Assembly (NCBI GenBank): GCA_038258425.1
Contig: JBBSPV010000020.1
Coordinates: forward strand, 663 to 64,662
DNA from: Solirubrobacterales bacterium
GTDB taxonomy: Bacteria; Actinomycetota; Thermoleophilia; Solirubrobacterales; Solirubrobacteraceae
DNA length: 64,000 nt
Reading direction: 5' to 3'
In this document: positions 3,237 through 25,280 of the stretch, piece after piece
How positions within the stretch are numbered: position 1 is the stretch's first letter
How the letters are laid out: each line of letters begins with the position of its first letter
The notes under the pieces: model-generated
The model's database searches: none
What the model was told of the DNA's origin: nothing
The model's input: only the letters and a program-made list of their open reading frames with translations
Translations under genes and position numbers: made by a program

Positions 3237-3598
3237 CGCCGGCGCGCGCCGCCCGTCTGCTGCCGGAGCTTGCGGGTGTAGATCCATTTGTCCGTGAGGT
3301 ACATGATCGGCGTGTAGAGCAGCAGCGCCACCGCGGACATCAGCAGCGCCTGGCCCGTCGTCGTGCCCTTGGAGAGGAAGCGGAAGAAGGCGAAGAGGAT
3401 CGCCGCCCCGATCAGCGCCTTGACGGCCGAGGACTGCAGCGTCGGCGGGCGCAGCTCGCGCGCCCCGCCCCGGCCGCCCTTCGTCCCGGCCGGTCGCGGC
3501 GCCCCGTCGCGCGGCTTGCTCGTGCGCCCGCGGACCTCGACCGCGCCCGCGGCGTTTCCCCGGTGCTTCGTCCGGCGCTTGCGCTTGGTCTGGGCCAT
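3233..3598 (-). CDS. small membrane protein with basic N-terminus, unknown function
   Basis: 121-aa ORF with a Lys/Arg-rich N-terminal 45 aa followed by two hydrophobic helices (ALIGAAILFAFF, LLMSAVALLLYTPIMY). It is translationally coupled to the MBL gene. Confidence 0.55.
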   Translation of the reverse strand: MAQTKRKRRTKHRGNAAGAVEVRGRTSKPRDGAPRPAGTKGGRGGARELRPPTLQSSAVKALIGAAILFAFFRFLSKGTTTGQALLMSAVALLLYTPIMYLTDKWIYTRKLRQQTGGARRR

Positions 3599-3607
3599 TG
3601 GGGGAGT

Positions 3608-4441
3608 CTACGTGGCGAGGGCCCGTTCGAGGAGCTGCCGGGCGGGCTCGAATCCGGGCATCGGCACGTCGGCCGGGAAGTCCGCGAACGCCCGCTCGGG
3701 CGCGAGGCCAACGAGCTCCGCGCGCGCCACGGCCGCGTGGCGGCGGACGGCCGCGACGACCTGGCCGGGCGTCGCCCGCTCGAGCGCCTCGACGTTCGTG
3801 CTCACCTGCGCCGCGCCGCTGAGCTGGACGCCGAGGGCGCGGACGCCGGGCAGCCCCTCGGCCCCGCCCTCGCGGATGCGGGCGGCGATGGCGCGGGCGT
3901 CGGCGACGTCGTGGGCCGGGCCGAGCTGCACGTTGAAGGCGATCAGCGGTGGACGGGCGGTCACGAGCGTCGCGCCGGCGCTCGCGTGCGCGGGCGGCCC
4001 GAAGTCCGGGGGCCGCCCATCGAGGCCGCCGGGGCGGCGCAGCTCGGCGCGGGTGCGGCCGCCGCCGAGCTCGCCGTAGAGGTGGACCGGCAGCCCGAGC
4101 TCGTGCCCGAGCCGGTCGGCGAGCACGAGCGCCTCGGCGATCGCCGCACCGCGCTCGGCCGGGTCCGCGAAGACGATCGGCGCGACGTCGAGCGCCCCGA
4201 CGCGCGGGTGCACGCCCGCGTGCCGGCGCAGGTCGATCCGCGCGACCGCCTCCCGGGCGCCGGCGAGCACGGCGCCGGCGAGCAGGCCGGGGCCGGCGGC
4301 GAGGGAGAACACTGCGCGGTGGTGGTCGGCGTCGGCGTGGAGGTCGAGCACGCGCGCGCCGCCGGCCGCGAAGGCCGCGCCGATGGCGTCCAGCGCCGCC
4401 GCGTCCCGGCCCTCGGAGACGTTGGGAACCGCGAGCAGCAC
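3608..4441 (-). CDS. glutamate formimidoyltransferase (formiminotransferase domain protein)
   Basis: The N-terminal hallmark VPNVSEGRD is followed by a two-subdomain FT-like sequence. The ORF extends to 4525, but GTG at 4441 (VLLAVPNVSEGRD) gives the canonical N-terminus. The start is uncertain. Confidence 0.75.
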   Translation of the reverse strand: MLLAVPNVSEGRDAAALDAIGAAFAAGGARVLDLHADADHHRAVFSLAAGPGLLAGAVLAGAREAVARIDLRRHAGVHPRVGALDVAPIVFADPAERGAAIAEALVLADRLGHELGLPVHLYGELGGGRTRAELRRPGGLDGRPPDFGPPAHASAGATLVTARPPLIAFNVQLGPAHDVADARAIAARIREGGAEGLPGVRALGVQLSGAAQVSTNVEALERATPGQVVAAVRRHAAVARAELVGLAPERAFADFPADVPMPGFEPARQLLERALAT

Positions 4442-4499
4442 GGCGGCGAGGCTAGGTGACTGCGTGGCGCTCGGGCGCGGGCGCGCCCTGGGGGTCGGG

Positions 4500-5080
4500 G
4501 TGGGGGTGGTCGAGGTTAGGGACAACCATGGGCCTCAACCTCGACCACCTCGCGCGGGGCTTGACGCCGGCGCCCCGGCAGGCTCGTCGTCACGTTCTAC
4601 CCTGGCGGCCGTTCCCGAGCCGCCGAACAAGCCCGACACGCTCGACCCCGAGGTCGTCGAGCGCCTGATTACCCGCGACCTCGAGGAGCACCGGGGCAAG
4701 CCGCTCTCGCGCCGCACGCTCGAGACCCAGCGCTCCCTGGAGTCCTACCTGCGCGCGGGCATCCGGCCCCGGTGGAGCGAGCGGCTGATGGAGATCGAGC
4801 GCTACACGCGCGAGCACTGGCGCTCGCTCGAGCGGCGGCTGGGACAGCTGCGGGAGTCGATCGCCGACCCCGCCGTCCTCGCCGCCCGCTGGGCCGAGGT
4901 GGCGGCGACGTGGGACTTCGGCCAGGTCAACGACCTCGTCCGCCAGCACAACCAGTGGTACCCGGTCGAGCGCGACCTGCCGATGAACCCGCGCACGGGC
5001 GAGTACCTGCCGGTGATGGGCCGCTCCTACCGGCGGTCGGAGCTCGACGCGGCGTGGGTGCTGCGAGAGTTCCCCGCCTG

Positions 5081-6127: not shown

Positions 6128-6201
6128 GCCGGAGTAGCTCAGTCGGTTAGAGCAGCGGAATCATAATCCGCGTGTCGGGGGTTCGAGTCCCTCCTCCGGC
6201 A
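6128..6201 (+). tRNA. tRNA with CAT anticodon (elongator Met, or Ile2 if lysidine-modified; not initiator)
   Basis: Manual cloverleaf: acceptor GCCGGAG/CTCCGGC, D-arm TAGCTCAGTCGGTTAGAGCA, anticodon stem GCGGA/TCCGC with loop ATCATAA, T-arm GGGGGTTCGAGTCCCTC. The 1-72 pair is G-C and the anticodon stem lacks a GGG run, so it is not tRNA-fMet. No CCA is encoded. Confidence 0.9.
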
Positions 6202-8073: not shown

Positions 8074-9129
8074 ATGGGCGTCATCAATTCCTGGTGGAGC
8101 TGGTGGCAGGCGCAGAAGCGCAAGCGCACCGGCCGTGAGATCGCTGCGGCGCTCGATCGCGCCTACGCGGCGGCCCCGACCCGCACCTTGGACGCCCGTG
8201 CGGATCGACTGGTCGTCTTCTCCGACCATCACAAGGGGGCGCGGGACGGCGCCGATGATTTCCAGCGCTCCGAGCGCACCTACAACGCCGCCTTGACCTA
8301 CTACGACGCATTGGGCTTTTACCTCCTCGAGCTTGGCGACGTGGAGGAGCTGTGGGAGAACACCTTCGAGGAGGTCGCTGCGAGCTACCCGGCCACGTTG
8401 CAGCTGGCAGCCGCTTTCCACGCCCGCGGCGGGTACACGCGCATGTGGGGCAACCATGACCTGGCCTGGAAGGACACCCAGTTGTTCAAGGCGCGCATGG
8501 GGACGTTCGGCTACGACGGCGTCGCCCCGATCGAGGCGCTGCGGCTCGTCGTGGACGGCTCCGGCGGCGGCGAGCTGTTTCTCGTGCATGGACACCAGGG
8601 CACCGCCGACAGCGACCGCCACGCCACGCTGAGCCGCCTGTTCGTCCACTACGGCTGGCGCAGCCTGCAGCGGCTGCTTGACCGGCCGTGGAACAGCCCG
8701 TCCATGGACTGGGAGCTGCGCGGCGAGCACGCGCAGCACATGGCGTACTGGGCGACGGAACGCCATCGCGTCGTGGTCGCCGGCCATACCCACCTGCCCG
8801 TCTTCTTCGGGCACGAAAAACCGCTCCCGGCCCCGCCGGAGCAGGACGACGGCCCGACGGACACAGCGGAGGCCGAGGCCCTCAGCGCCGCGCGCGCGGA
8901 ATGGGCCAAGGCGGAGCTCGAACGGCTCAAGCGCCAGCGTCCGATCCCGCTGACGACCCCGTGCTATTTCAACACCGGCTGCTGCTCGTTCGGGGACGGC
9001 GACATCACCGGGATCGAGCTCGCCGACGGTCAGATCCGGCTCGTGCGGTGGCCGTGTGACCCGCAGACCGAGCGCGTCGAGCTTGCGGCGATGGAGCTCG
9101 ACGAGGTATTCGCCGCCACGCGCGACTAA
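8074..9129 (+). CDS. calcineurin-like metallophosphoesterase
   Basis: The motif series VVFSDHHKG, GDVEELW, GNHD, VHGHQG, AGHTH is present. I place the start at ATG 8074 (MGVINSWW) rather than the TTG at 8038. Confidence 0.75.
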   Translation: MGVINSWWSWWQAQKRKRTGREIAAALDRAYAAAPTRTLDARADRLVVFSDHHKGARDGADDFQRSERTYNAALTYYDALGFYLLELGDVEELWENTFEEVAASYPATLQLAAAFHARGGYTRMWGNHDLAWKDTQLFKARMGTFGYDGVAPIEALRLVVDGSGGGELFLVHGHQGTADSDRHATLSRLFVHYGWRSLQRLLDRPWNSPSMDWELRGEHAQHMAYWATERHRVVVAGHTHLPVFFGHEKPLPAPPEQDDGPTDTAEAEALSAARAEWAKAELERLKRQRPIPLTTPCYFNTGCCSFGDGDITGIELADGQIRLVRWPCDPQTERVELAAMELDEVFAATRD

Positions 9130-10232
9130 GACGGGGCGGGACGGTCCTCGACCTGGGTCACCGGCCCTTGGGCACGCGCGTACGCGTCGAGGTTCGCGGG
9201 CGCATAGTCGGATCGTTCGGACCGCCGGCGCACGGCACTGGAGGCCAGCGACAAGGCCGAACCGTCCGAATCGTCAAGCCGTCTGACGTGTCGGGGCATA
9301 AGGTCGTACAGGCCCTTGCGGGAGCTGTGGATCACGCCCAGGGCGTCCGGGGCGGTGTCGGCGCCCTGCCGGCGTCGCGCGGGGACGGGCGCCGCCGGCC
9401 GGGTGAAGTGATCGGCGTCGAAGGCCAGGCCGCACTCGCGCGCCCGTTGCACCATCCACAACAGAGCGATCTCGGCCAGCGCGGGATTCGGGTAGCCGCC
9501 GCCCACGTCGCTGTGGACGCCCGCGAACCAGACCTGCTCCAGCGTCTGGTCGTCGGCATCGGCCTGGCGCTGCCACAGCGTCGGCCGAAACGGGCCCCGC
9601 TGCTCGTCGATGGCCAGCGCCTGGTAGGCGAAGCGCACATGACGGCTCAGCGTCGTGTCGTGAAAGCCCCAGAGCCGCTGGGCGAACGGCAGGCGCAGCC
9701 CGTCGATCGGGATGCCGAGCGCCCCTACCGTGTCCCACACGCCGACGAAGTGCACGTCGCACGCCTCGTGGCAGTGCATGCGGCGAAAGATCTGCGCCTC
9801 GAGTCCCTCCGGGTGCGTCGTCGGCGCCCGCGACCGATACAGCCGGTAGGCGTCGTCAATGCGGGCCGCATGCTCGCGACGCAGAATTCCAGAATTCCGC
9901 ACCAAGCCCACGGTGCTTCGTGCCGTGAAGGCACCGCGACTGAATCCGAAGAAGTACAGCTCGTCGCCTGGCCGGTAGGTCTCCACGAGGAAGCGGTAGC
10001 AGTCGCGGACGTTGCGTCCGAGGCCCAGCCCGAACGCCCCGCCACGAAGCCGCTCGAAGCGGCGGGTCCCGACGCCCGGTTCGTAGAACAGCGGCTGGGC
10101 GACTCCGTCGTCATCCACCCGCGCAACGCCAAGGGCGAGTTTCGAGACGTTGGTCGGTGCCGGCACGCCGTCGACGACTTCGTCCGGTCGGTTCCACGTT
10201 CCGTCACAGCAGACAACGAGCCGACGGGTCAT
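9126..10232 (-). CDS. DUF2235 alpha/beta hydrolase (Tle1-type phospholipase-like)
   Basis: N-terminal VVCCDGTWN, nucleophile elbow FGFSRGA (GxSxG), GVWDTVGALG, FAGVHSDVGGGY. This pattern is characteristic of the DUF2235 family, which includes T6SS Tle1 lipases. Confidence 0.75.
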   Translation of the reverse strand: MTRRLVVCCDGTWNRPDEVVDGVPAPTNVSKLALGVARVDDDGVAQPLFYEPGVGTRRFERLRGGAFGLGLGRNVRDCYRFLVETYRPGDELYFFGFSRGAFTARSTVGLVRNSGILRREHAARIDDAYRLYRSRAPTTHPEGLEAQIFRRMHCHEACDVHFVGVWDTVGALGIPIDGLRLPFAQRLWGFHDTTLSRHVRFAYQALAIDEQRGPFRPTLWQRQADADDQTLEQVWFAGVHSDVGGGYPNPALAEIALLWMVQRARECGLAFDADHFTRPAAPVPARRRQGADTAPDALGVIHSSRKGLYDLMPRHVRRLDDSDGSALSLASSAVRRRSERSDYAPANLDAYARAQGPVTQVEDRPAPS

Positions 10233-10301: not shown

Positions 10302-12746
10302 TCATAGATGCCAGGGTGGCCGCGCGTAGCCTTTGAATCTGAGGGCGGGGCTGGACGGATCGCGCCGGTGCTCGGCGACGCAGCCGCCGTTCGACTGGCT
10401 CCCGCTGCCCGGGTTGGCGCTGGTGTTGCCGCCGATCACGTCGAACGGTCGGGCGGTTACCAACAGTTCGACATGAGCGGCGACCGCGCTGCCCGGCTCG
10501 GTGTAGAGGACGAGGTCGCCCGGCCGTCCGTGCGCGAGGTTCGGATGCCACGACCAGCCGTGGACTTCGCCGCGGGCGTAGTGCTCGATGGTGGGACAGG
10601 CCCGCAGCCATGGCTGGTTCGGAAGTCCGGCGGCGTGCAGGCACGCGTTGACGAACGAGCCGCACCAGTAGGCGTGCGGTCCGGGTGGGACACCGGCGGC
10701 CCGGTTCCACGCGTTGACCTGGGGGCCGGTGTTCGATCCGGCCGGGATCTCGTGGACGCCGAGATGGTGCCGGCCGTAGGCGATCGCTCGAGCCGGTCCG
10801 GCGTGCTGCGACGCCAGCCGCTTGCGCAGTGCCGCGCGCCATGGCTTGCGTCGGCGGCCGCGCTCGTGTTCGCTCGGGCTGCGTCTCGAGGGATGGCGGA
10901 TCTTGATTCTGGCCTCGGGTGTCAGGCCATCCCGGTAGCTGCTCGGGTTGAGCCCGAGGCCGTGGCAGATCTGGTGAGCCGCTCGATGAGTCTCTTCGCC
11001 GTATTCACGGTCGACATCGATGCGCTTGCGCATGCGCCAACGCTCGAAGCGATGGTTGAGCAGCTTCTGTAGCGACGCGATCGAGTCGCTCTTCATGTAT
11101 GGCGTGACCACGTTGTAGGTCTCGGCGTCGTTCGCGGTCGACCGGTGGTTGGGCTGTGCGCCCTTAGGCCCGCTCGACGCGGGTGGATGTGGACGTGACT
11201 CGACTGGCGGGCTGCCAGATTGCCCGTGGCGGTGCACGTGCGGCATCAGACGCCTTTCCACACGCGCGAGCCGCGCGATGCGTTCTTTGCGCGCCCTCCC
11301 GAGGCGGACGTCGAGTCGGTCGATGACGCCGTCGAGATCCCCGTCGGAGAGATCGACGAAGCGAGAGCGTCGCGCCTCCGCCGGCGCCGCCGCCTCGTTG
11401 GCAGCTGGTGCCTGGGAGCCGTTCGGGCCGAGCGGCGGGCTGATGGCCGTCGAACCGGCTTCAACGACAGCCGCGCCGACGGGTTCGCGCCCGCGTGCGA
11501 GTTCAGCCTCCTCGACGGCCAGCTCACGCCGCTCGAGCTCCACGAGGATCTCGAGTTGATGCTCGATGCGCTGAAGACTGCCTGCCGGGCCGGGTGGGTC
11601 TGTCGTGCCGCCGGCACCCAGATGGGTCAATAGGCGCTCGCGCCGGTGCCCGTAGGCCTCGATCCGCTGCCAGGCCTTGTCCGCTTCGGCGTCCAAGCGC
11701 TGGAAGGCGTGCACAAGCTGGACGAGCCGCGCGGGCCGAACCCCCGCCCTGACCCCGGCGGCCGGCGCCGCAGAGCCCGGCTTCGCAGCTTCGCGCCGAG
11801 CTTTGATGCGCCGGACGGCTCGCCGTAGCTCATGGGCGCTCTCGTGGCCGTACGTGCCGTTGGCGGGGAGTTCGTGCTCGGCCTGGAACGCCTTGAGGGC
11901 GGCGAGGGTGTCCGCGTCGAAGTGCCGGCGGGCACCGTCGAGATAGGGCGCGCCGGTCTTGCGCGACGGAACCACCGAGAGCCGTCGCGTGAGCCGCACG
12001 ACTTCGCTTCCGCGGTCTCCCCGACGCAGCGGCCGGGTCGGACGCGCCGGTCGCCTCGCGGCGTGGATGCCCGGAGGCGGGGCGAGGCACCGGGGATCCG
12101 CGACGCTGAGGTCGACGTTCTGTCCGAGTACGTCGCAGCTGTGCCCGCCGTAGGCCCCGGCGTACTGCCACGCGCGTTGGCCGGGCTTGTGCCACAGCCT
12201 CGCCGGCAGGCCTTGGGCGGCGTACGCGTCATGGGCGACGACGCCGTGCGTCACCCAACTGGCGACCCACACGAAGTCGGCATGGACCTTGCCCCGGGCG
12301 AAGGCCTTGAGTGGCTCCGGGTTCGCGTAGACGCCGGGCCGCGCTCCGGCTTTGCGGACCGCGGCGCACCAAGCGCGGACGTACGTGACGACAGCTCCCG
12401 GAGCGTGGTTGTACGTGGGAAGTTCCACGTCGAGACACAGCGGGAAGTTGCCGCCGTAGCCGAAGCGCTGCGCTCGCTCCAGCGCGTCGTGGGCGTCCCG
12501 CTCACCTTGGGCGGACGTCAGCGCCCCTCGAGCCCCCTGGCCCGCGTAGGTGATCATGAAGCGCTCGATCCCGAGGCCCGCGTACTCGTGGACCAGCTCA
12601 GGTGTCCAGCCGCTCGCGCGCGTGCTCGGGCCGCCGATGTAGACGTTCCACCACTTGCCTCCGATGTGGTCGAGCATCCGCTTCGCCAGCACCGCCGGGG
12701 GTGCATCGCCGCGGTCGAGCCCCTGTAGCGAGGCCCCCACCGTCAA
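10302..12746 (-). CDS. multidomain cell-wall hydrolase: DUF1906/GH25-like barrel + two peptidoglycan-binding repeats + coiled coil + C-terminal CHAP amidase/peptidase
   Basis: 814 aa. N-terminus: GWTPELVHEYAGLGIERFMITY...CLDVE. PG_binding-like: LKAFQAEHELPANGTYG. C-terminus: CHAP with YWCGSFVNACL (Cys) and AAHVELLV (His). The TTG start overlaps the upstream stop (TTGA). Confidence 0.7.
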   Translation of the reverse strand: MTVGASLQGLDRGDAPPAVLAKRMLDHIGGKWWNVYIGGPSTRASGWTPELVHEYAGLGIERFMITYAGQGARGALTSAQGERDAHDALERAQRFGYGGNFPLCLDVELPTYNHAPGAVVTYVRAWCAAVRKAGARPGVYANPEPLKAFARGKVHADFVWVASWVTHGVVAHDAYAAQGLPARLWHKPGQRAWQYAGAYGGHSCDVLGQNVDLSVADPRCLAPPPGIHAARRPARPTRPLRRGDRGSEVVRLTRRLSVVPSRKTGAPYLDGARRHFDADTLAALKAFQAEHELPANGTYGHESAHELRRAVRRIKARREAAKPGSAAPAAGVRAGVRPARLVQLVHAFQRLDAEADKAWQRIEAYGHRRERLLTHLGAGGTTDPPGPAGSLQRIEHQLEILVELERRELAVEEAELARGREPVGAAVVEAGSTAISPPLGPNGSQAPAANEAAAPAEARRSRFVDLSDGDLDGVIDRLDVRLGRARKERIARLARVERRLMPHVHRHGQSGSPPVESRPHPPASSGPKGAQPNHRSTANDAETYNVVTPYMKSDSIASLQKLLNHRFERWRMRKRIDVDREYGEETHRAAHQICHGLGLNPSSYRDGLTPEARIKIRHPSRRSPSEHERGRRRKPWRAALRKRLASQHAGPARAIAYGRHHLGVHEIPAGSNTGPQVNAWNRAAGVPPGPHAYWCGSFVNACLHAAGLPNQPWLRACPTIEHYARGEVHGWSWHPNLAHGRPGDLVLYTEPGSAVAAHVELLVTARPFDVIGGNTSANPGSGSQSNGGCVAEHRRDPSSPALRFKGYARPPWHL

Positions 12747-13237
12747 CTCCTCGGCGCGGCCGTCTCGCCGTCGAGCGCGTCGAGCCGGTCGAGCTCGTCG
12801 AGCTCGTCAAGCTCGTCGTACTCCGTGACGAGGCCTGCCCCGTCGGACTCTTCGAGGTCATCGAGGTCATCGAGGTCGTCGACGTCGTCGTCGACCTCGT
12901 CGGGCGCCGACCCGAGCTGGTCGACGCCCGAGGCCGCCTCGGCGGTGCCGGCGGCTGCGATCGTCAGACCACCCTCGGCCCCGGCCTCAGCAAGGGCCAG
13001 CTCGTGCGCGAAGCCGGCCTGCCGGGCCTCGTACTTCTGCCACCCGTGCAGCCACTGCAGGGCGGGGGCGAGGCCAATCAGGGCCCCACCGATGAAGACT
13101 TGCTCAATCGAGCCCTTGTCGACTGAGATGCCGGGAAAGTGCTCAGCCAGGAGGGCGGCGATGGCACCCGCGAGCGGGGCGAAGACGATCGGCGTCAGTA
13201 CCGCAACGACCCGATTCGGGGTAAGCATGGCTCCCAT
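12743..13237 (-). CDS. holin-like small membrane protein with acidic repeat tail
   Basis: Two hydrophobic helices (VVAVLTPIVFAPLAGAIAALLA, VFIGGALIGLAPAL) are followed by a strongly acidic C-terminus with DDLDDLDDLEE and DELDELDELDRLDALD repeats. It sits immediately upstream of, and overlaps, the hydrolase gene. The start (13237, 13228 or 13255) is uncertain. Confidence 0.5.
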   Translation of the reverse strand: MGAMLTPNRVVAVLTPIVFAPLAGAIAALLAEHFPGISVDKGSIEQVFIGGALIGLAPALQWLHGWQKYEARQAGFAHELALAEAGAEGGLTIAAAGTAEAASGVDQLGSAPDEVDDDVDDLDDLDDLEESDGAGLVTEYDELDELDELDRLDALDGETAAPRS

Positions 13238-13320
13238 CGCTTGGCAGTCGGTCAACGGACGTATTTCGAGGCGAACCGACAGTAAGCCAGCGCCAGCCGG
13301 TAAGTCAAGCAGCGCGTACG

Positions 13321-13348
13321 TGACAAGTGACAGATCGCACTTTACGCT
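13321..13348 (+). promoter_or_regulatory. sigma70-like promoter candidate for the SLATT-TIR-SLOG operon
   Basis: TGACAA (13321-13326), a 16-nt spacer, then TACGCT (13343-13348), in a locally lower-GC divergent intergenic region. A GAGGG ribosome-binding site lies ~8 nt before ATG 13376. Confidence 0.35.
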
Positions 13349-13375
13349 GTGCAGGCACTTGCGAGGGTTTGCGAG

Positions 13376-13867
13376 ATGGCAGACCAGACGATCGAGATCC
13401 CTGCGGCCGCACCGCCGCCCGCGTCGGCGGCGGATCCCTCCTCAGCGTCGCCCGCCTGGGAGCGACTCGAGGATCAACTGCGCTGGTACGAGCGCAACAG
13501 TGCGCACTGCCGACGTGCGTTCCATTGGCTGAAGGTCATTCAGATCGTGGTCGCCGCCGCGATACCCGTCATCGCCGCGCTCGAGGCGCCGGTGGCGGTC
13601 GCCGGGGTCCTGGGCGCCTCAGTCGTAGTCCTCGAGGGATTGCAACAGCTGTTCCAGTACCAGCAGAACTGGACCGCCTACCGCGCCACCGCCGAGGCGT
13701 TGAAGCACGAGCGCCTCCTTTACCTCTCTCGTGTGGGGCCGTACTGCCCCGGCGCCGACCGCGACGCCGCGCTCGCCGAACACGTCGAGGCACGCGTCTC
13801 GACCGAGCACGCTGCGTGGGTCAAGGACCGGCGTGAGAACCCGCAACGCCCCATGGTCGAGGCGTGA
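13376..13867 (+). CDS. SLATT / DUF4231-family 2-TM protein
   Basis: LEDQLRWYERNSAHCRRAFHWLKVIQIVVAAAIPVIAAL, a second helix VAVAGVLGASVVVLEGL, then QYQQNWTAYRATAEALKHERLLYL. This is the DUF4231 pattern. The ORF track starts at GTG 13349, but that abuts the -10 element, so ATG 13376 is preferred. Confidence 0.75.
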   Translation: MADQTIEIPAAAPPPASAADPSSASPAWERLEDQLRWYERNSAHCRRAFHWLKVIQIVVAAAIPVIAALEAPVAVAGVLGASVVVLEGLQQLFQYQQNWTAYRATAEALKHERLLYLSRVGPYCPGADRDAALAEHVEARVSTEHAAWVKDRRENPQRPMVEA

Positions 13868-15021
13868 GCGCCCTCATCTTTCTCAACTACCGGCGCTCGG
13901 ACTCAGCCGGATGGACACGCCAGCTGCATCGCGATCTCGGCGAGCGCTTCGGCGGCGAGCGAGTGTTCCGCGACGTCGCGATCGCCCCCGGCGTCGACTT
14001 CGTCGACCACATCGAGCGCGTGATGGACGCCTGCAAGGTGTGCATCGCCGTGATCGGCCCGCAGTGGACTCACGTCACCAACGCCGCGGGTCTACGCCGC
14101 CTCGACGATCCTGAGGATCTCGTGCGCTTGGAGATCGAGCGCGCCCTTGAACGTACCGACGTGCAGGTCATCCCGGTGCTCGTGGACGGCGCGCGCATGC
14201 CCGCCGAGCACGACCTGCCGAGCGGGCTCCGCCGCCTGGCCCGCCGCAACGCCTGCGAGCTCACCGATGTGCGCTGGGACTACGACGTCGAGGTCCTCAG
14301 CCGCTGCATCCGACAGGCGGTTGAACCGGCGTCCATCGAGTCCGAGCCATACGAGGCTGCACCCTCAATCCCGCCTCCCGCGTTGCCGCCCGAGCCGGTC
14401 GCCACTCCGGTGGCCGTCCTGCCCGCCGTCCTGGCGACGCTCACGGCCGCGGCCATCGCGCGAGTCTTGGCAGCGCTGGTAACCCTTCCCCTCAACCAGG
14501 CCAACGACGACTTGTACGGCACCCAGCACCTGGCGCCCTCCGCGCTCGAACGGGGCATCCTCTGGGCGATCGTCGGGGCGGCCGTCGCCGCGGTCGCGGC
14601 GGCGACCTTTGCCCACGTCCGGGTCCCCGTCGGCCAAGCCCTCGTCGGCGCCAGCGCGGCTGGAATCGGCGGTGCACTGAGCGGAAGCATCCTGGTCGCC
14701 CTGACGGAACTGGGACCCAAGGTCGACCTCTCCCCCGAGCTGGCGACGGCCATGCGAATCTGGCTTCCCGCCGTGGCGCTTGCCGTGGTGCTCGCGCGCG
14801 GCACCCAGGCCAGCGCGGTCGAGTGCACGCTGGCCGCCCTCGCCGGCGTCGCGATCGCGTCGTTGGTGCCGGATTTCGGGGGCTCGGTCGCCAAGCTGTT
14901 CGTGCAGGTCGTCCGGACCCTGCTCATCGTCGGAGCGCCGCTGGCGGTCATCGCCGCCCGGCCGCAACGCGCGACGCTTACGAGCCGTGAAACCACGAGG
15001 CGCGGCCCCGCCGCCGCGTGA
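13864..15021 (+). CDS. TIR-domain protein fused to a ~6-helix transmembrane region
   Basis: aa 1-150: IFLNYRRSDS, VFRDVAIAPGVDF, CIAVIGPQW, DLVRLEIERAL (conserved Glu at codon 90, nt 14131-14133), VIPVLVDGARMP. This is the TIR_2-type pattern. aa ~175-370 hold six Ala/Val/Gly/Leu-rich hydrophobic stretches. The GTG start overlaps the upstream TGA (GTGA). Confidence 0.8.
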   Translation: MSALIFLNYRRSDSAGWTRQLHRDLGERFGGERVFRDVAIAPGVDFVDHIERVMDACKVCIAVIGPQWTHVTNAAGLRRLDDPEDLVRLEIERALERTDVQVIPVLVDGARMPAEHDLPSGLRRLARRNACELTDVRWDYDVEVLSRCIRQAVEPASIESEPYEAAPSIPPPALPPEPVATPVAVLPAVLATLTAAAIARVLAALVTLPLNQANDDLYGTQHLAPSALERGILWAIVGAAVAAVAAATFAHVRVPVGQALVGASAAGIGGALSGSILVALTELGPKVDLSPELATAMRIWLPAVALAVVLARGTQASAVECTLAALAGVAIASLVPDFGGSVAKLFVQVVRTLLIVGAPLAVIAARPQRATLTSRETTRRGPAAA

Positions 15022-15683
15022 TCTCCGCCACCGTCCGCGTCAACAACCAAGACGACCTCGAGCACGCGGTCGCCGCGTTGGCACTCGGCGGCCCAAGGCC
15101 AACGCTGGCGCTCGTCGGAGGCGCCGCCGGCATGAGCCCAGCGACTCGACGACAGGTCGAAGCCCTGTTCGCCACGACCGTCGTGCCGACCCTCGAGGTC
15201 CTCGGCGCAGCCGTGGTCGACGGTGGCACAGACGCCGGCATCATGGCCGCCATGGGCTCCGGACACCGATCATGTGCTGCGACCTTCCCGCTCATCGGCG
15301 TCGTGACGAAACGAGGGACCAACCGACTCGAGCCGAACCACAGCCACATCCTCGTGGTACCCGGGCAATCCTGGGGCGACGAGGTCCCGTGGCTCGCCGC
15401 CGTCGCCACGCTCATCGCCAGTGGAGCGCCATCCGTCACGCTGCTGATCAACGGCGGAGACATCGCCTGGCGAGACGTCGGCGAAAGCCTCGCCCGCAGC
15501 CGTCCGGTCATTGCACTCGTCGGGACCGGTCGCACCGCCGACGCGCTCGGAACCGCCATCGACCGGGCCGGCCACGAGACGAGCGACCACTTCGCGGCGT
15601 CGGGCTTGCTCACCACCGTGTCTCTCGCTGACCGAGCCGGGCTCTCCCGCGCTCTCCGAGCCGCCCTCTCAAACGGATCCTGA
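15018..15683 (+). CDS. stand-alone SLOG domain protein, TRPM/LSDAT type
   Basis: The blocks LALVGGAAGMS, AVVDGGTDAGIMAAMG, LIGVV, LEPNHSHILVV..WGDE, LLINGGDIAWRDV and VIALVGTGRTADAL align by eye with the MHR1/2 N-terminal region of TRPM channels (GGAKNF, LTGGTHYGLM, LDNNHTHLLLV, QGGGKETL, VVVEGSGQIAD). The GTG start overlaps the upstream TGA. Confidence 0.75.
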   Translation: MISATVRVNNQDDLEHAVAALALGGPRPTLALVGGAAGMSPATRRQVEALFATTVVPTLEVLGAAVVDGGTDAGIMAAMGSGHRSCAATFPLIGVVTKRGTNRLEPNHSHILVVPGQSWGDEVPWLAAVATLIASGAPSVTLLINGGDIAWRDVGESLARSRPVIALVGTGRTADALGTAIDRAGHETSDHFAASGLLTTVSLADRAGLSRALRAALSNGS

Positions 15684-22781: not shown

Positions 22782-24245
22782 TCACGCGACCGCCGGCGCC
22801 TCGCCGGCCCGCGCCACCATCGCGTGCCCGCGCGCGTCGCGCGAGGAGATGATCGTCGCCGCGAGGAGCGCTCCGACGAGCGCGAAGCCCGCGCCGACCA
22901 GGAAGGCGGTCTGGAAGCCCTCCGTGACGAAGACCGGGTTCTGCTCGGCGCCCGCGCCGAAGCTCGCCGTGCGCGAGGTCGCGACGGACGACAGCACCGC
23001 CACGCCGAGCGCGCCACCGAGCTGCTGGGCGGTGTTGATCAGGCCGGAGGCGAGGCCGGCCTCGTTGGGCTTGGTGCCGGTGACCGCGGCGATCGTGACC
23101 GGGACGAACGACAGCCCGAGGCCGACCGCGGCCAGCATGGACGGGCCGAGGACGTCCCTGCCGAAGTTGCCGTCTGCGCTGACCTGCGAGAACCAGAGCA
23201 GCCCGGCGGCGACGAAGAGCATCCCGACGACGAGCGTGACCTTGAAGCCGATCCGGGTGACGAGCTGCGAGGCGACCCCCGAGGACACGATGATGAGCAG
23301 CGCCAGCGGCAGGTAGCACAGGCCCGTGGTGAGCGCGCTGTAGCCGAGCACCCGCTGGAGGTACAGCGAGATGAAGAAGAACATGCTGAACAGCGACATG
23401 CCGATGAGCACGCCGACGACGTTGGCGCCGCGCAGCGTCCGCAGGCGGAAGATCGAGAAGGGCATGAGCGGGTGCGCCGCGCGCGCCTCGACGGCGACGA
23501 ACGCGACGAGCAGGAGCACGGCGCCGAGCAGGCGCAGCAGGGTCGCGGCCGAGGTCCAGCCCGCGCTCTCGGCGTCCACGAGCGTGTAGACGAGCAGCGC
23601 CAGCCCGGCCGTCACGGTGAAGGCGCCCGGCAGGTCGAAGGAGCGGTGCGCCCCGTCCGCGCGGCTCTCCTCGAGCAGGCGCGGGGCCATGAACGCGGCG
23701 GCGGCGGCGATCGGGACGTTGACGAACAGGACCCACTCCCAGCCGGCCCATTCGGTCAGCACGCCGCCGAGCAGGACGCCGGCGGCGCCGCCGGCGCCCG
23801 CCACGGCGCCCCAGACGCCGAGGGCGCGGTTGCGCTCGGCGCCCTCGGCGAAGATCGTCGTGACGATGGACAGCGCGGCGGGTGCGATGAGCGCGGCGCC
23901 GAGGCCCTGCAGCGCGCGGGCGGCGTTGAGCCAGGCTTCGGACTGGGCCAGGCCGCCGAGCAGCGACGCGAGGGAGAAGACGCCGAGGCCGACGATGAAC
24001 ATGCGGCGTCGCCCCAGGAGGTCGGCGAGGCGACCGCCGAGCAGCAGGAAGCCGCCGAAGGTCAGCGTGTAGGCGTTGACGATCCACGAGAGCGACTCGG
24101 GGTCGATGTCGAGCGCCGAGCCGATCGACGGCAGGGCGACGTTCACGATCGAGGCGTCGATGACGATCATGAACTGCGTCGTGGCGAGGAGGATCAGGGC
24201 GAGGGTCTTGGCGCGAGCAGTCATGCCGGCATCGTCTCCGGCCAT
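22782..24245 (-). CDS. MFS transporter, DHA2 (EmrB/QacA, 14-TM) type
   Basis: LATTQFMIVIDASIVNVALPSI, LGGRLADLLGRRR, and 14 hydrophobic segments. Start at ATG 24245 or 24224. The rest of ORF 22782..25604 is antisense noise. Confidence 0.85.
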   Translation of the reverse strand: MAGDDAGMTARAKTLALILLATTQFMIVIDASIVNVALPSIGSALDIDPESLSWIVNAYTLTFGGFLLLGGRLADLLGRRRMFIVGLGVFSLASLLGGLAQSEAWLNAARALQGLGAALIAPAALSIVTTIFAEGAERNRALGVWGAVAGAGGAAGVLLGGVLTEWAGWEWVLFVNVPIAAAAAFMAPRLLEESRADGAHRSFDLPGAFTVTAGLALLVYTLVDAESAGWTSAATLLRLLGAVLLLVAFVAVEARAAHPLMPFSIFRLRTLRGANVVGVLIGMSLFSMFFFISLYLQRVLGYSALTTGLCYLPLALLIIVSSGVASQLVTRIGFKVTLVVGMLFVAAGLLWFSQVSADGNFGRDVLGPSMLAAVGLGLSFVPVTIAAVTGTKPNEAGLASGLINTAQQLGGALGVAVLSSVATSRTASFGAGAEQNPVFVTEGFQTAFLVGAGFALVGALLAATIISSRDARGHAMVARAGEAPAVA

Positions 24246-24317
24246 GCGGTCAGCTACGGTCCGCATGCGCGCCCATGCGGTCAACTGCAGTCCGCATGGT
24301 GTGCGACCCTGCCGGTC

Positions 24318-25280
24318 ATGGTCCAGACCTCGGCGCGGCTCCTCGCCCTGCTCTCGCTGCTGCAGCAGCGCCGGGAGTGGTCGGGCCCCGAGCTCGCCGG
24401 CCGGCTCGAGGTCGGGCCGCGCACCATCCGCCGTGACGTCGAGAAGCTGCGCGAGCTCGGCTACCCGATCGAGGCCGCGCCGGGTGTCGCGGGCGGCTAC
24501 CGGCTCGCCGCGGGCGCGCAGATGCCACCCCTGCTGCTCGACGACGCCGAGGCCATCGCCGTCGCCGTCGGGCTGCGCAGCGCCGCGTCCGGGTCGATCG
24601 CCGGCATCGAGGAGTACTCCGTCCGGGCGCTGGCCAAGCTCGAGCAGATCCTCCCGGACCGTCTGCGCGACCGCGTGCGCGCGCTGGGCGACGCCACCTC
24701 GACCTTCCGCGTCGACGGCCCGCAGATCGACGCCGACGAGCTCGCGCTCATCGCCGGTGCCTGCCGCGACGGCGTCCGGCTGCACTTCGCCTACACGGCC
24801 AAGGGTGGCGAGGCCAGCTCCCGCGAGGTGGAGCCCGCCGCCGTCGTCCACACGGGTTGGCGCTGGTACCTCGCTGCCTACGACCTCGGCCGCGACGACT
24901 GGCGCACGTTCCGCGTCGACCGCATCGCCGGCCGGCCGCGGACCGGCGAGCGCGGCACGCGCCGCGAGGTGCCGGGCGGCGACGCGGCGGCGTTCGTCAA
25001 GCGGTCCATCCGCGGCGGCGAGGGCGACGTCGTCCACGGCCGCGTCCGGCTGCGCGCACCCGCCGACGGCATCGGCACCCGCGTGCCCGCGCGCTACGCG
25101 ACCGTCGCCCCCGACGGCCCCGACGCCTGCGTGGTCACCACGACGGGCCGCTGGAGCCGCGAGTTCCTCGTCTGGATGGCGATGATGGACGCCGAGCTCA
25201 CGGTGCTCGAGCCGCCGGAGCTGGCCGAGGAGGCCGCCCGGATCGTCACGCGTCTCGGGGACGTGGCGAGGCCGGGCTGA
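24318..25280 (+). CDS. YafY-family transcriptional regulator (HTH + WYL domain)
   Basis: RLLALLSLLQQRREWSGPELAGRLEVGPRTIRRDVEKLRELGYPIE, followed by a WYL-type region (GWRWYLAAYDLGRDDWRTFRVDRI). It is divergent from the MFS gene. Confidence 0.8.
   Translation: MVQTSARLLALLSLLQQRREWSGPELAGRLEVGPRTIRRDVEKLRELGYPIEAAPGVAGGYRLAAGAQMPPLLLDDAEAIAVAVGLRSAASGSIAGIEEYSVRALAKLEQILPDRLRDRVRALGDATSTFRVDGPQIDADELALIAGACRDGVRLHFAYTAKGGEASSREVEPAAVVHTGWRWYLAAYDLGRDDWRTFRVDRIAGRPRTGERGTRREVPGGDAAAFVKRSIRGGEGDVVHGRVRLRAPADGIGTRVPARYATVAPDGPDACVVTTTGRWSREFLVWMAMMDAELTVLEPPELAEEAARIVTRLGDVARPG

Follow-up and report, generated by a model that had tools for sequence, protein, structure and literature searches.

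Type VII Thoeris pairs a ThsB TIR protein with a ThsH SLATT effector by way of the canonical signal cADPR (Yirmiya et al., bioRxiv 10.64898/2025.12.03.692087). On infection the type VII TIR produces cADPR, cells that carry the system are poisoned when cADPR is supplied, and protection against phage has been demonstrated for TIR and SLATT systems, which have been reported in Actinomycetota too (bioRxiv 10.64898/2025.12.03.692087). The same work lists TIR with "SLOG and 4TM" as a putative Thoeris configuration in its Table S2, and candidates of this kind gave no defence in E. coli (bioRxiv 10.64898/2025.12.03.692087). SLATT proteins have been predicted to be membrane effectors regulated by ADPr derivatives (PMC9503650). 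In the TRPM2 channel, the contacts of the N-terminal ADPR site are Y295, R302, R358, and the beta5-alpha3 loop (PMC6759353). Type I Thoeris combines the TIR generator ThsB with a SLOG-family sensor in the SIR2-SLOG protein ThsA. The SLATT, SLOG, and LSDAT families were reportedly defined by Burroughs et al. in 2015, who are also said to have predicted that LSDAT-SLATT pairs and fusions are nucleotide-sensing pore systems. Signalling by TIR and SLATT (type VII Thoeris) was demonstrated only very recently, and for the abundant LSDAT-SLATT systems we found no experimental work in the literature.

Here, we describe an operon from a Solirubrobacterales bacterium, an actinobacterium of soil, located in a stretch of 64,000 nucleotides that was analysed as a whole (the window). 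It is most likely a modified relative of the TIR-signalling Thoeris anti-phage systems. The predicted generator, TRPM2-like receptor, and pore are three small separate proteins, which makes the operon a compact test bed that bears on the ligands of LSDAT proteins, on LSDAT gating of SLATT pores, and on the control of TIR from within the membrane. Should ADPR or cADPR prove to be the ligand, the operon would connect bacterial immunity with the SARM1/TRPM2 chemistry of animals.

Three overlapping genes encode SLATT, membrane TIR, and SLOG proteins

The features of the operon are as follows, with the basis of each call in parentheses.

13321-13348, + strand: putative promoter-like element, (G)TGACA-N17-TACGCT (sequence)
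13349, + strand: alternative GTG start of gene 1 (sequence)
13363-13367, + strand: GAGGG ribosome-binding site, 8 nt 5' of the gene 1 ATG at 13376 (sequence)
13376-13867, + strand: gene 1, SLATT/DUF4231 protein, 163 aa from the ATG (ORF list, Pfam, NCBIfam, hydropathy)
13864-13867, + strand: GTGA start/stop overlap of genes 1 and 2 (sequence)
13864-15021, + strand: gene 2, TIR-6TM protein, 385 aa (ORF list, Pfam, AF2)
13876-14265, + strand: TIR_2 domain of gene 2, residues 5-134 (Pfam, 6.7e-11)
14131-14133, + strand: GAG codon of gene 2 Glu90, catalytic position (sequence and SARM1 alignment)
14407-15000, + strand: six-helix transmembrane module of gene 2, residues 182-379 (AF2 helices, hydropathy, conservation)
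15018-15021, + strand: GTGA start/stop overlap of genes 2 and 3 (sequence)
15018-15683, + strand: gene 3, stand-alone LSDAT_prok (TRPM-type SLOG) protein, 221 aa (ORF list, Pfam, AF2, Foldseek)
15372-15374, + strand: gene 3 W119, equivalent of TRPM2 Y295 (alignment to TRPM2)
15531-15533, + strand: gene 3 R172, equivalent of TRPM2 R358 (alignment to TRPM2)

The three genes are translationally coupled, and both the ORF coordinates and the two GTGA junctions agree with the single + strand operon proposed in an earlier note on this DNA. Gene callers likewise give a 163-aa gene 1 product on the same organism's contig. The promoter-like element that the note had placed upstream is present and is the one match to TGACA-N17-TANNNT in the 64-kb window (0.03 expected, for a pattern derived post hoc). 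It fits the actinobacterial TANNNT form of the -10 element, but a standard sigma-70 scan made no call at 13321-13348.

Gene 1 matched DUF4231 (1.4e-25) and SLATT_1 (2.5e-8) in Pfam and SLATT_1 in NCBIfam (4e-36), and hydropathy placed a 2-TM hairpin at residues 48-90 (nt 13517-13645), in agreement with its first description as a DUF4231/SLATT-type protein with two TM segments. It is predicted to be a pore-type membrane effector. Orthologues with 58-75% identity lie upstream of TIR-6TM genes and phage homologues are paired with TIR; the protein is orthologous to TIR-linked SLATTs, not to LSDAT-linked SLATTs.

The first part of gene 2 had been read as a TIR_2-type domain with a conserved Glu at codon 90, and the domain match and the alignments bear this out. 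E90 is invariant across 20 family members and is aligned in the family profile with the Glu of "DWVHKEI" in SARM1. A phmmer search of the PDB with only the TIR domain as query gave no match; the SARM1 TIR was found instead with the family profile (6e-6), and by Foldseek at TM 0.85. The domain is thus a SARM1-like TIR with its catalytic Glu present and is predicted to cleave NAD. Its closest relatives in sequence and structure, SARM1, TIR-1, and SPARTA, are NAD-depleting TIRs, and the TIR NADases of SARM1 and TIR-1 are the closest solved ones. Gene 2 differs from SARM1 and TIR-1 in having no ARM/SAM regulatory domains and in anchoring its TIR by six TM helices. The TIR clade to which gene 2 belongs serves as the N-terminal module of many sensor-type proteins, and includes relatives fused to the envelope or extracytoplasmic modules SPOR, CHASE2, and FGE-sulfatase.

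Both hydropathy (six hydrophobic segments at residues 178-367) and an AF2 model (pLDDT 84.9; a TIR fold, then six long helices spanning 182-379) give the roughly six hydrophobic helices noted earlier, and the module tethers the TIR at the inner face of the membrane. Residues A196, R230, G262, and G270 of the module are invariant. Among 1.84 billion proteins, only 13 representatives matched it at E<=1e-3; the three of these that recur among the gene 2 relatives belong to the TIR-TM family, and the others are mostly short. No PDB analogue was present among the top Foldseek matches. The module is an orphan, family-specific domain, and the TIR-6TM family is a membrane-anchored TIR architecture without previous description. 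Those of its members that are full-length or carry a name are from soil bacteria of the Solirubrobacteraceae type, the nearest named being Solirubrobacteraceae MAGs. Members were collected with phmmer and hydropathy tables, as tblastn with composition correction lost most matches to the low-complexity TM domain.

Gene 3 matched LSDAT_prok at 1e-55 and LSDAT_euk at 2.5e-6 (Pfam), has no TM segment, and keeps all family-invariant LSDAT residues. TRPM2 was the best PDB match of the LSDAT profile (7.8e-17), and for the AF2 model (pLDDT 91.2) all 50 of the top 50 Foldseek matches were TRPM channels, again with TRPM2 as the best (TMq up to 0.81). These results uphold the earlier description of a stand-alone SLOG that aligns with the MHR1/2 region of TRPM. 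In the alignment to the N-terminal ADPR site of TRPM2, W119 and R172, which are equivalent to Y295 and R358, are invariant, and the beta5-alpha3 loop is conserved; the equivalent of R302 is L126 and is not conserved. The protein is a soluble TRPM2-type SLOG, with W119 as the putative aromatic clamp, R172 as the putative phosphate-binding Arg, and a Gly-rich loop. In contrast to TRPM2, it is a free protein and does not belong to a 6-TM cation channel. Bacterial LSDAT proteins also share an invariant Asp, D153 in "NGGxxxxxD", where TRPM2 has Thr. This is, we assume, the position of the catalytic Glu in the LOG motif PGGxGTxxE.

The conserved unit among relatives is SLATT followed by TIR

Gene order was compared across TIR-6TM and LSDAT loci, and the domains of flanking genes were assigned by a Pfam scan of cluster representatives drawn from 139 flanking ORFs. 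The unit retained among TIR-6TM orthologues is SLATT followed by TIR. In four of six orthologue loci the gene directly upstream of TIR is SLATT; the same holds for some two dozen of 80 metagenomic loci, these two dozen being mostly of the multi-TM form. The same order and overlap are found in Staphylococcus phage SN8, and the overlapping pair extends from Firmicute (Staphylococcus) prophages to Actinomycetota. In some orthologues (four loci) SLATT is lost or truncated and TIR-6TM is kept.

The orthologue loci have a two-gene core and none carries a SLOG gene. A SLOG next to TIR-6TM was seen in this organism only, the other copy of the triad being from another assembly of that organism, which indicates that the SLOG is dispensable for the core. 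The three-gene synteny in other genomes that the earlier note had named as a check was therefore not found.

The functional link which that note drew between TIR, SLOG, and SLATT does have support from other arrangements. A SLATT gene is present within 62 of 80 LSDAT loci, mostly directly downstream of LSDAT. Full-length LSDAT-2xSLATT fusions number at least 120, and genomic matches to LSDAT-SLATT systems at least 563. TIR genes of the gene 2 clade adjoin LSDAT-2xSLATT fusions at three loci, and a further locus has a TIR beside LSDAT/SLATT. A TIR-WD40 gene adjoins LSDAT in eight of the 80 LSDAT loci, for example in the order LSDAT, SLATT, TIR. Some TIR-WD40 and LSDAT pairs (two loci) are without any SLATT, and LSDAT thus need not act through SLATT. 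Altogether, linkage of TIR, LSDAT, and SLATT recurs independently in at least five architectures.

The core resembles type VII Thoeris in composition

Like type VII Thoeris, the operon combines a TIR gene and a small SLATT membrane protein, and it shares the order and overlap of SLATT and TIR with the phage and prophage versions. By its domains, the core can be taken as type VII in composition. The earlier claim that the arrangement matches no characterised Thoeris type therefore holds only for the tripartite, membrane-TIR form. The operon departs from type VII in that its SARM1-like TIR_2 domain is fused to the orphan six-TM module, whereas validated type VII TIRs belong to other TIR clades; within the accessible part of type VII Table S1, none of the gene 2 TIR motif strings was found. 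It also carries a third, translationally coupled LSDAT gene, whereas orthologous loci keep the two-gene core.

HMM searches of the three proteins, which had been suggested as a check, were significant throughout (TIR_2, DUF4231/SLATT, LSDAT_prok). The PADLOC run suggested alongside them returned no significant match for genes 1 to 3, and ThsB appeared only at E 0.044. Across the PADLOC and NCBIfam models for Thoeris, matches were sub-threshold only (ThsB 0.044; ThcB4 0.002, against a 220-bit cut-off), and the PADLOC 2023 models predate type VII Thoeris. With type I Thoeris the operon shares a TIR generator and a SLOG-family sensor, but its SLOG is of the LSDAT family and stands alone, and Pfam and NCBIfam found neither the SIR2 domain of ThsA nor any other enzymatic domain in genes 1 to 3.

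The LSDAT_prok SLOG and the DUF4231/SLATT_1-type SLATT are the components of LSDAT-SLATT systems. Here, however, they are separate proteins with a TIR gene between them, the order is SLATT, TIR, LSDAT and not LSDAT, SLATT, and the only SLATT lies two genes upstream of LSDAT. This SLATT is single (2 TM), where LSDAT-2xSLATT proteins have two (4 TM). Nor is there a single polypeptide with SLOG and four TM segments as in the "TIR + SLOG-and-4TM" configuration, since gene 3 is without TM and SLATT is separate.

Proposed mechanism and alternatives

Our preferred reading, which we hold tentatively, is a membrane-centred TIR nucleotide-signalling conflict system, probably anti-phage and of the abortive-infection kind, built on a type VII-like SLATT and TIR pair, in which the TIR signal goes to SLATT and the SLOG is an added receptor or adaptor. 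The six-TM module, or an envelope event sensed by it, would switch the TIR on, and the SPOR, CHASE2, and FGE-sulfatase fusions in the TIR clade fit such a TM sensor with TIR output. The TIR would then cleave NAD+ and release an ADPR-derived signal beside the membrane, with cADPR or ADPR as the best guess. For cADPR made on infection, as in type VII, the one indirect hint is the likeness of the TIR to SARM1. SLOG and/or SLATT would read this ADPR-type signal and open the pore, with SLATT oligomerising into a membrane-breaching assembly that leaves the infected cell arrested or killed. At the two-gene orthologous loci SLATT would have to read the signal itself. The SLOG added here would most likely be an extra high-affinity receptor or adaptor coupling the signal to the single SLATT; the usual partner of LSDAT, as a separate protein or in fusion, is SLATT.

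Several observations were counted against the preferred reading. The nearest TIR relatives, SARM1 and SPARTA, are NAD-depleting effectors and not ThsB-type signal makers, SLATT has been lost or truncated in some orthologues, and the SLOG stands beside TIR-6TM in this one organism. The replacement of R302 by L126, the lack of defence-gene neighbours, the "SLOG and 4TM" candidates without defence in E. coli, the lack of a significant PADLOC match for genes 1 to 3, and the TIR-WD40 and LSDAT pairs without SLATT were counted likewise.

A possible, if doubtful, view is that the operon represents a prokaryotic prototype, in split form, of the animal axis from NADase through ADPR to TRPM2. In that case a membrane SARM1-type TIR would make ADPR/cADPR locally, and a free TRPM2-type SLOG would bind it via the aromatic and Arg clamp and gate the SLATT pore. 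The logic would be that of TRPM2, where a membrane pore is under the control of a SLOG that senses an ADPR-type ligand, but the pore partner differs, as SLATT is unrelated to TRP channels. Were this so, the control of a membrane pore by a ligand-binding TRPM-type SLOG, together with its link to a TIR generator, would be older than eukaryotes, and the six-TM module would be a new kind of membrane/envelope sensor that switches a TIR on.

The SLOG is unlikely to be an enzyme or buffer, such as a LOG-like hydrolase or a sponge, that breaks down, processes, or sequesters the TIR product and sets an activation threshold against autoimmunity or makes the active ligand, with SLATT reading the signal directly as in type VII. 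The SLATT-TIR core without SLOG in all orthologues would suit that role, as would the pairs of TIR-WD40 and LSDAT without SLATT, which tie LSDAT to TIR chemistry independently of the pore. D153 is invariant in bacterial LSDAT at what we take to be the catalytic position of LOG, and SLOG belongs to the LOG/DprA superfamily. However, the dominant partner of LSDAT is SLATT, covalent fusions included, and this is more in keeping with a receptor and its pore than with a scavenger. The SLOGs characterised in TIR/ADPR signalling, those of ThsA and of TRPM2 (PMC6759353), are moreover ligand sensors.

We consider it quite improbable that there is no second messenger and that the SARM1-like TIR itself kills by NAD+ depletion at the membrane, leaving SLATT and/or SLOG as regulators or sensors, or SLATT as an independent holin-like toxin. 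This would agree with the NAD-depleting activity of the closest relatives, with the several orthologues that keep TIR-6TM without SLATT, and with the use of the clade as an N-terminal module on sensor-type proteins. Yet SARM1 itself also makes ADPR and cADPR, and the tight overlapping pairing of SLATT and TIR is conserved from Firmicute prophages to Actinomycetota. TIR and SLATT systems have also been shown to signal via cADPR to SLATT (bioRxiv 10.64898/2025.12.03.692087).

Very unlikely is a chance juxtaposition of a SLATT-TIR6TM pair with an orphaned LSDAT gene that is missing its own SLATT and is unrelated in function or decaying: the arrangement is confined to a single organism, the closest LSDAT relatives of gene 3 share no more than about 50% identity and come from LSDAT-SLATT pairs, and its GC3 is slightly below that of genes 1 and 2 (with no clear mark of foreign origin), but the GTGA overlap implies co-translation with gene 2, gene 3 keeps every family-invariant residue and folds confidently in AF2, a degraded second SLATT was looked for downstream of it and none was found, and the linkage of the three families is recurrent.

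Genomic surroundings

The locus had been described as a typical defence-island context, tRNA-linked and beside a prophage-like cassette. This description found little support: a tRNA-Met lies 7 kb away, no integrase was found in the window, and the flanking proteins gave no match to PADLOC. The divergent 814-aa protein had weak endolysin-type matches only and no other phage genes accompanied it, and a prophage origin of the divergent cassette was not adopted.

It is very unlikely that the same parts serve soil Actinomycetota as a cell-death switch in envelope stress, development, or kin conflict and not as an anti-phage system. Most loci do have housekeeping neighbours, with no PADLOC matches near the operon, sensor domains of the cell-wall (SPOR) or extracytoplasmic kind are found on related TIRs, and conflict systems of the Aravind type are overrepresented in multicellular bacteria (PMC7159879). 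However, no two of the genomes examined hold the SLATT-TIR6TM pair at the same place, as is usual for mobile defence modules, homologous pairs occur on prophages, and TIR and SLATT systems defend against phage (bioRxiv 10.64898/2025.12.03.692087).

The context signals at this locus are two, the weakly endolysin-like 814-aa gene and a dip in GC to about 0.67-0.72 at 6-22 kb, compared with 0.73-0.77 in the flanks.

A SLATT-TIR core joined by a SLOG gene

The locus is best described as a SLATT-TIR core similar to type VII Thoeris, with its TIR domain fused to an orphan six-transmembrane (TM) module; in this genome alone, a TRPM2-type SLOG is added to the core. The three plus-strand open reading frames reported in the earlier note are present, and both gene junctions are GTGA start/stop overlaps in the sequence. 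Independent gene calls in another assembly of this organism also yield these three products.

13321-13348, +, promoter-like element (GTGACA, 17 nt, TACGCT), read from the sequence
8 nt upstream of the g1 ATG, +, GAGGG ribosome-binding site
13376-13867, +, g1, SLATT gene, 163 aa from ATG (GTG alternative start at 13349)
13864-15021, +, g2, TIR-6TM gene, 385 aa
15018-15683, +, g3, stand-alone SLOG gene of the TRPM (LSDAT) type, 221 aa

The promoter-like element proposed in the earlier note exists and is the sole match to TGACA-N17-TANNNT in the 64-kb window (0.03 expected, for a pattern picked after seeing the site), but a standard sigma-70 and terminator scan called nothing across 12.7-16.2 kb. 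Its role as a promoter is plausible but not established.

Profile HMM searches matched the g1 product to DUF4231 (1.4e-25), SLATT_1 (2.5e-8) and NCBIfam SLATT_1 (4e-36), and hydropathy placed a single 2-TM hairpin at residues 48-90, bearing out the original SLATT/DUF4231 assignment. Residues 5-134 of the g2 product match TIR_2 (6.7e-11), and, among solved proteins, a profile built from 20 family members came closest to SARM1 TIR domains (6e-6). E90, which had been picked out as the conserved glutamate, is unchanged throughout these 20 members and pairs with the Glu of SARM1 "DWVHKEI" in the family-profile alignment. The AF2 model (pLDDT 84.9) contains a TIR fold followed by six long helices (residues 182-379) that tally with six hydropathy peaks, as expected from the earlier count of about six, and Foldseek returned SARM1 TIR (TM 0.85), C. 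elegans TIR-1 and SPARTA TIR as top matches to the TIR fold. An even number of TM segments and no signal peptide place both termini in the cytoplasm. These analyses show a SARM1-like TIR with the catalytic Glu, anchored on the cytoplasmic side of the membrane by six predicted TM helices.

The TM half, in which A196, R230, G262 and G270 are invariant, is by its search results an orphan module. Searched exhaustively, 1.84 billion representatives gave only 13 proteins at E<=1e-3, of which three recur among the g2 relatives as a TIR-TM family and most others are short.

The g3 protein carries a putative TRPM2-type ligand site

The g3 product matches LSDAT_prok (1e-55) and LSDAT_euk (2.5e-6). In a search of the PDB with an LSDAT profile, TRPM2 ranked first (7.8e-17), followed by TRPM8, TRPM3, TRPM7, TRPM4 and TRPM5. 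The top 50 Foldseek matches to its AF2 model (pLDDT 91.2, pTM 0.90) were all TRPM N-terminal domains, including human TRPM2 with ADPR (TMq 0.81), in agreement with its description as a stand-alone SLOG akin to the TRPM N-terminus; g3 is a soluble SLOG of the TRPM2 type. Taken together, the domain matches for the three genes and the fold data for g2 and g3 confirm the sequence-level observations of the earlier note.

In the N-terminal site of TRPM2, U-shaped ADPR is sandwiched by Y295 and the beta5-alpha3 loop, with R358 contacting the phosphates and R302 the ribose, and the cyclic analogue 8-Br-cADPR is also taken (PMC6759353). In an HMM alignment to human TRPM2, Y295 corresponds to W119 of g3, R358 to R172, and the loop GGSHTGVM to DGGTDAGIM, all of which are invariant among 25 aligned bacterial LSDAT proteins; R302 corresponds to L126 and is not conserved.

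The SLATT-TIR pair is conserved and the triad is a singleton

About 23 full-length relatives of g2 were found (40-62% identity), some of them named as Solirubrobacteraceae MAGs. Of six distinct orthologue loci, four carry a g1-like SLATT gene (58-75% identical) upstream that overlaps the TIR gene, one retains just its C-terminal remnant and one lacks it; an LSDAT gene was found at none of the six. When metagenomes were scanned with the family alignment, 80 loci of the g2 TIR clade came back, and in about two dozen of them the TIR is immediately preceded by a g1-like SLATT. Most of these SLATT-preceded TIRs are multi-TM, and a few scored with one hydrophobic segment in a crude hydropathy count. 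The triad was not repeated among the 80 loci. Upstream of intact TIR-6TM genes, SLATT is reduced to a C-terminal remnant or missing in L005 (4915-5001), L090 (1785-1949), L007 and L093, and its loss appears to be tolerated. Two loci, L113 (141-3189) and L126 (3998-5749), carry two or three tandem TIR paralogues of the g2 clade, with one predicted TM each.

The nearest LSDAT relatives of g3 share at most about 50% identity. A SLATT gene is present in 62 of the 80 best genomic LSDAT loci, which are mostly cyanobacterial, and usually lies directly downstream of LSDAT. LSDAT-DUF4231-SLATT_1 fusions at full length (about 600 aa, "SLOG + 4 TM") number at least 120, some from Solirubrobacteraceae. 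The window therefore holds a conserved SLATT->TIR-6TM pair and an LSDAT gene of a kind usually partnered with a SLATT of its own. The three-gene synteny sought among relatives was not recovered, and the full combination is seen in this organism only. The overall interpretation in the earlier note is supported in part.

Relation to type VII Thoeris

Type VII Thoeris is a validated system comprising a TIR and the SLATT effector ThsH, in which canonical cADPR is made by the TIR upon infection, added cADPR is toxic to cells carrying the system, and ThsH is predicted by AF3 to form membrane-spanning oligomers (Yirmiya et al., bioRxiv 10.64898/2025.12.03.692087). The same study describes rare operons in which one TIR is common to two effectors, and reports that "TIR + SLOG and 4TM" operons from Streptomyces and Nitrospira gave no defence in E. 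coli. The earlier claim that the locus matches no characterised Thoeris type is thus outdated for the g1-g2 core, because type VII is TIR plus SLATT, but it holds for the membrane-embedded TIR and the stand-alone LSDAT. Among the sequences compared from Table S1 of that preprint, the type VII TIRs belong to clades other than that of g2, and no g2-type motif was found. PADLOC-DB 2023 and NCBIfam Thoeris models gave only sub-threshold matches to g1-g3.

TIR, LSDAT and SLATT are repeatedly linked

Comparative evidence supports a functional link among TIR, LSDAT and SLATT domains. Fusions of LSDAT to two SLATT domains are flanked by g2-clade TIR genes in L146 and L167, lie next to a divergent TIR_2 gene in a Solirubrobacteraceae MAG (L170), and have a TIR fragment, patatin and TPR-S genes nearby in L169. 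In L171 the fusion is followed by a DUF4062-NACHT gene, DUF4062 being presumably TIR-like, and one of four fusion loci examined (L172) is without a TIR. The TIR adjoining the L167 fusion (3545-5080) carries a single TM helix and, at its C-terminus, a SPOR (septal peptidoglycan-binding) domain, an architecture which hints that the g2 clade couples envelope sensing to TIR output.

With a sensitive local TIR HMM, 8 of 80 stand-alone LSDAT loci had an adjacent TIR gene, usually TIR(x1-3)-WD40. The order is LSDAT->SLATT->TIR-WD40 in an actinomycete MAG (L035) and TIR-TIR->SLATT with LSDAT divergent in L071. Giant TIR(x1-3)-WD40 genes lie directly upstream of LSDAT in L050 (50-5690), L067 (568-5702), L032 (2003-5723) and L015 (34-4857). 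The SLATT scan covered L050 and L032 and detected no g1-like SLATT downstream of LSDAT, the next gene being Uma2 or radical-SAM; L067 and L015 have little sequence 3' of LSDAT. The pairing is without an obvious effector. Staphylococcus phage SN8 likewise has an overlapping SLATT->TIR pair in its lysogeny module, and this neighbourhood was described earlier by Iyer, Burroughs and Aravind (PMC9503650). The theme has been anticipated computationally and validated experimentally in part. Judging from gene neighbourhoods, the association of the SLOG with TIR and SLATT recurs independently, its mechanism being a matter of proposal, and the locus is a compact system in which to test LSDAT ligand binding and a possible gating of SLATT pores by LSDAT.

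Two further neighbours of LSDAT were observed. Nine mostly cyanobacterial, Coleofasciculus-type loci (L012, L013, L036, L045-L048, L054, L056; ~1.4-4.8 kb) encode a SLATT_1 + TPR-S protein of about 1060 aa directly upstream of LSDAT, and most have a SLATT gene after it; in L056, the one scanned, that SLATT carries a fused Glyco_hydro_19 (lysozyme/chitinase-like) domain. TPR-S is a "sensor" TPR tied to TIR signalling. In L011, L014, L042, L052 and L074, four of them named cyanobacteria, a same-strand NAD(P)HX epimerase/dehydratase gene (YjeF_N + Carb_kinase; ~3.1-4.9 kb) lies immediately upstream of LSDAT->SLATT, which may reflect a tie to NAD metabolites or no more than synteny.

Proposed mechanism and alternatives

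In the proposed mechanism, the TIR would be switched on by its TM module or by an event at the envelope, and would then produce an ADPR-type signal. SLATT would read this signal directly, as two-gene orthologues require; here the SLOG would also read it, coupling it to the single SLATT, whose oligomers would breach the membrane. A role for the TM part as input is supported by sister TIRs of the g2 clade, which are fused to one TM and SPOR (L167), CHASE2, FGE-sulfatase or beta-propellers.

It is unlikely, but worth weighing, that the LSDAT protein is instead a LOG-like component that processes, degrades or buffers. The TIR-WD40 and LSDAT pairs without any SLATT in L050 and L032 show that a tie of LSDAT to TIR chemistry need not involve a pore, and D153, an Asp invariant across bacterial LSDAT, occupies what is presumably, judging from the LOG motif PGGxGTxxE, the position of the catalytic Glu. 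Somewhat less likely again is a SARM1-like TIR acting as an NAD-depleting effector with no messenger. We give little credence to the LSDAT gene as an unrelated or decaying passenger; every invariant residue of the 25 aligned LSDAT proteins is kept in g3, and no SLATT remnant was found downstream of it. Codon statistics do not clearly mark g3 as foreign. A role for the system other than anti-phage defence is similarly improbable.

Genomic context

6128-6201, tRNA-Met
9126-10232, -, DUF2235/T6SS Tle1-like phospholipase gene (1.9e-83), 3 kb from the operon
10302-13255, -, divergent cassette, a 170-aa TM protein gene overlapping the start of an 814-aa protein gene
~24330-25280, +, HTH-WYL-WCX transcription regulator, the C-terminal part of ORF 22824-25280, about 9 kb downstream of the operon

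The operon lies in a region (about 6 to 22 kb) with a GC of 0.66-0.72, versus about 0.73-0.77 in the flanks, which makes a foreign island possible. The earlier note spoke of a "tRNA-linked island"; the low-GC region starts at tRNA-Met, and Pfam scans of the operon's surroundings found no integrase or mobile-element genes. None of eight neighbouring proteins matched PADLOC, and the typical defence-island context once claimed is not borne out. The SLATT-TIR6TM pair has different, mostly housekeeping surroundings in each genome examined; this shifting location fits a small mobile module, with no evidence of a defence island.

In the divergent cassette, the 170-aa protein has a TM, an acidic D/E-rich tail and no family match, and the 814-aa protein combines an Rv2525c/GH25-like domain and PG_binding_1 with a C-terminal region weakly matching phage endolysin and tail-lysozyme families (PHROG endolysin matches 1e-11 to 1e-5). 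The cassette looks like a holin-endolysin pair, and its description as a prophage-like lysis cassette is apt for the lysis-like part, but no further phage genes lie nearby and a prophage nature is not demonstrable. A Tle1-like gene also occurs in a Solirubrobacteraceae orthologue locus (L006, 10180-11131), about 4 kb from the SLATT-TIR pair. The HTH-WYL-WCX regulator is presumably of the PafBC/BrxR/CapW type, and such regulators often control genes for defence or DNA damage.
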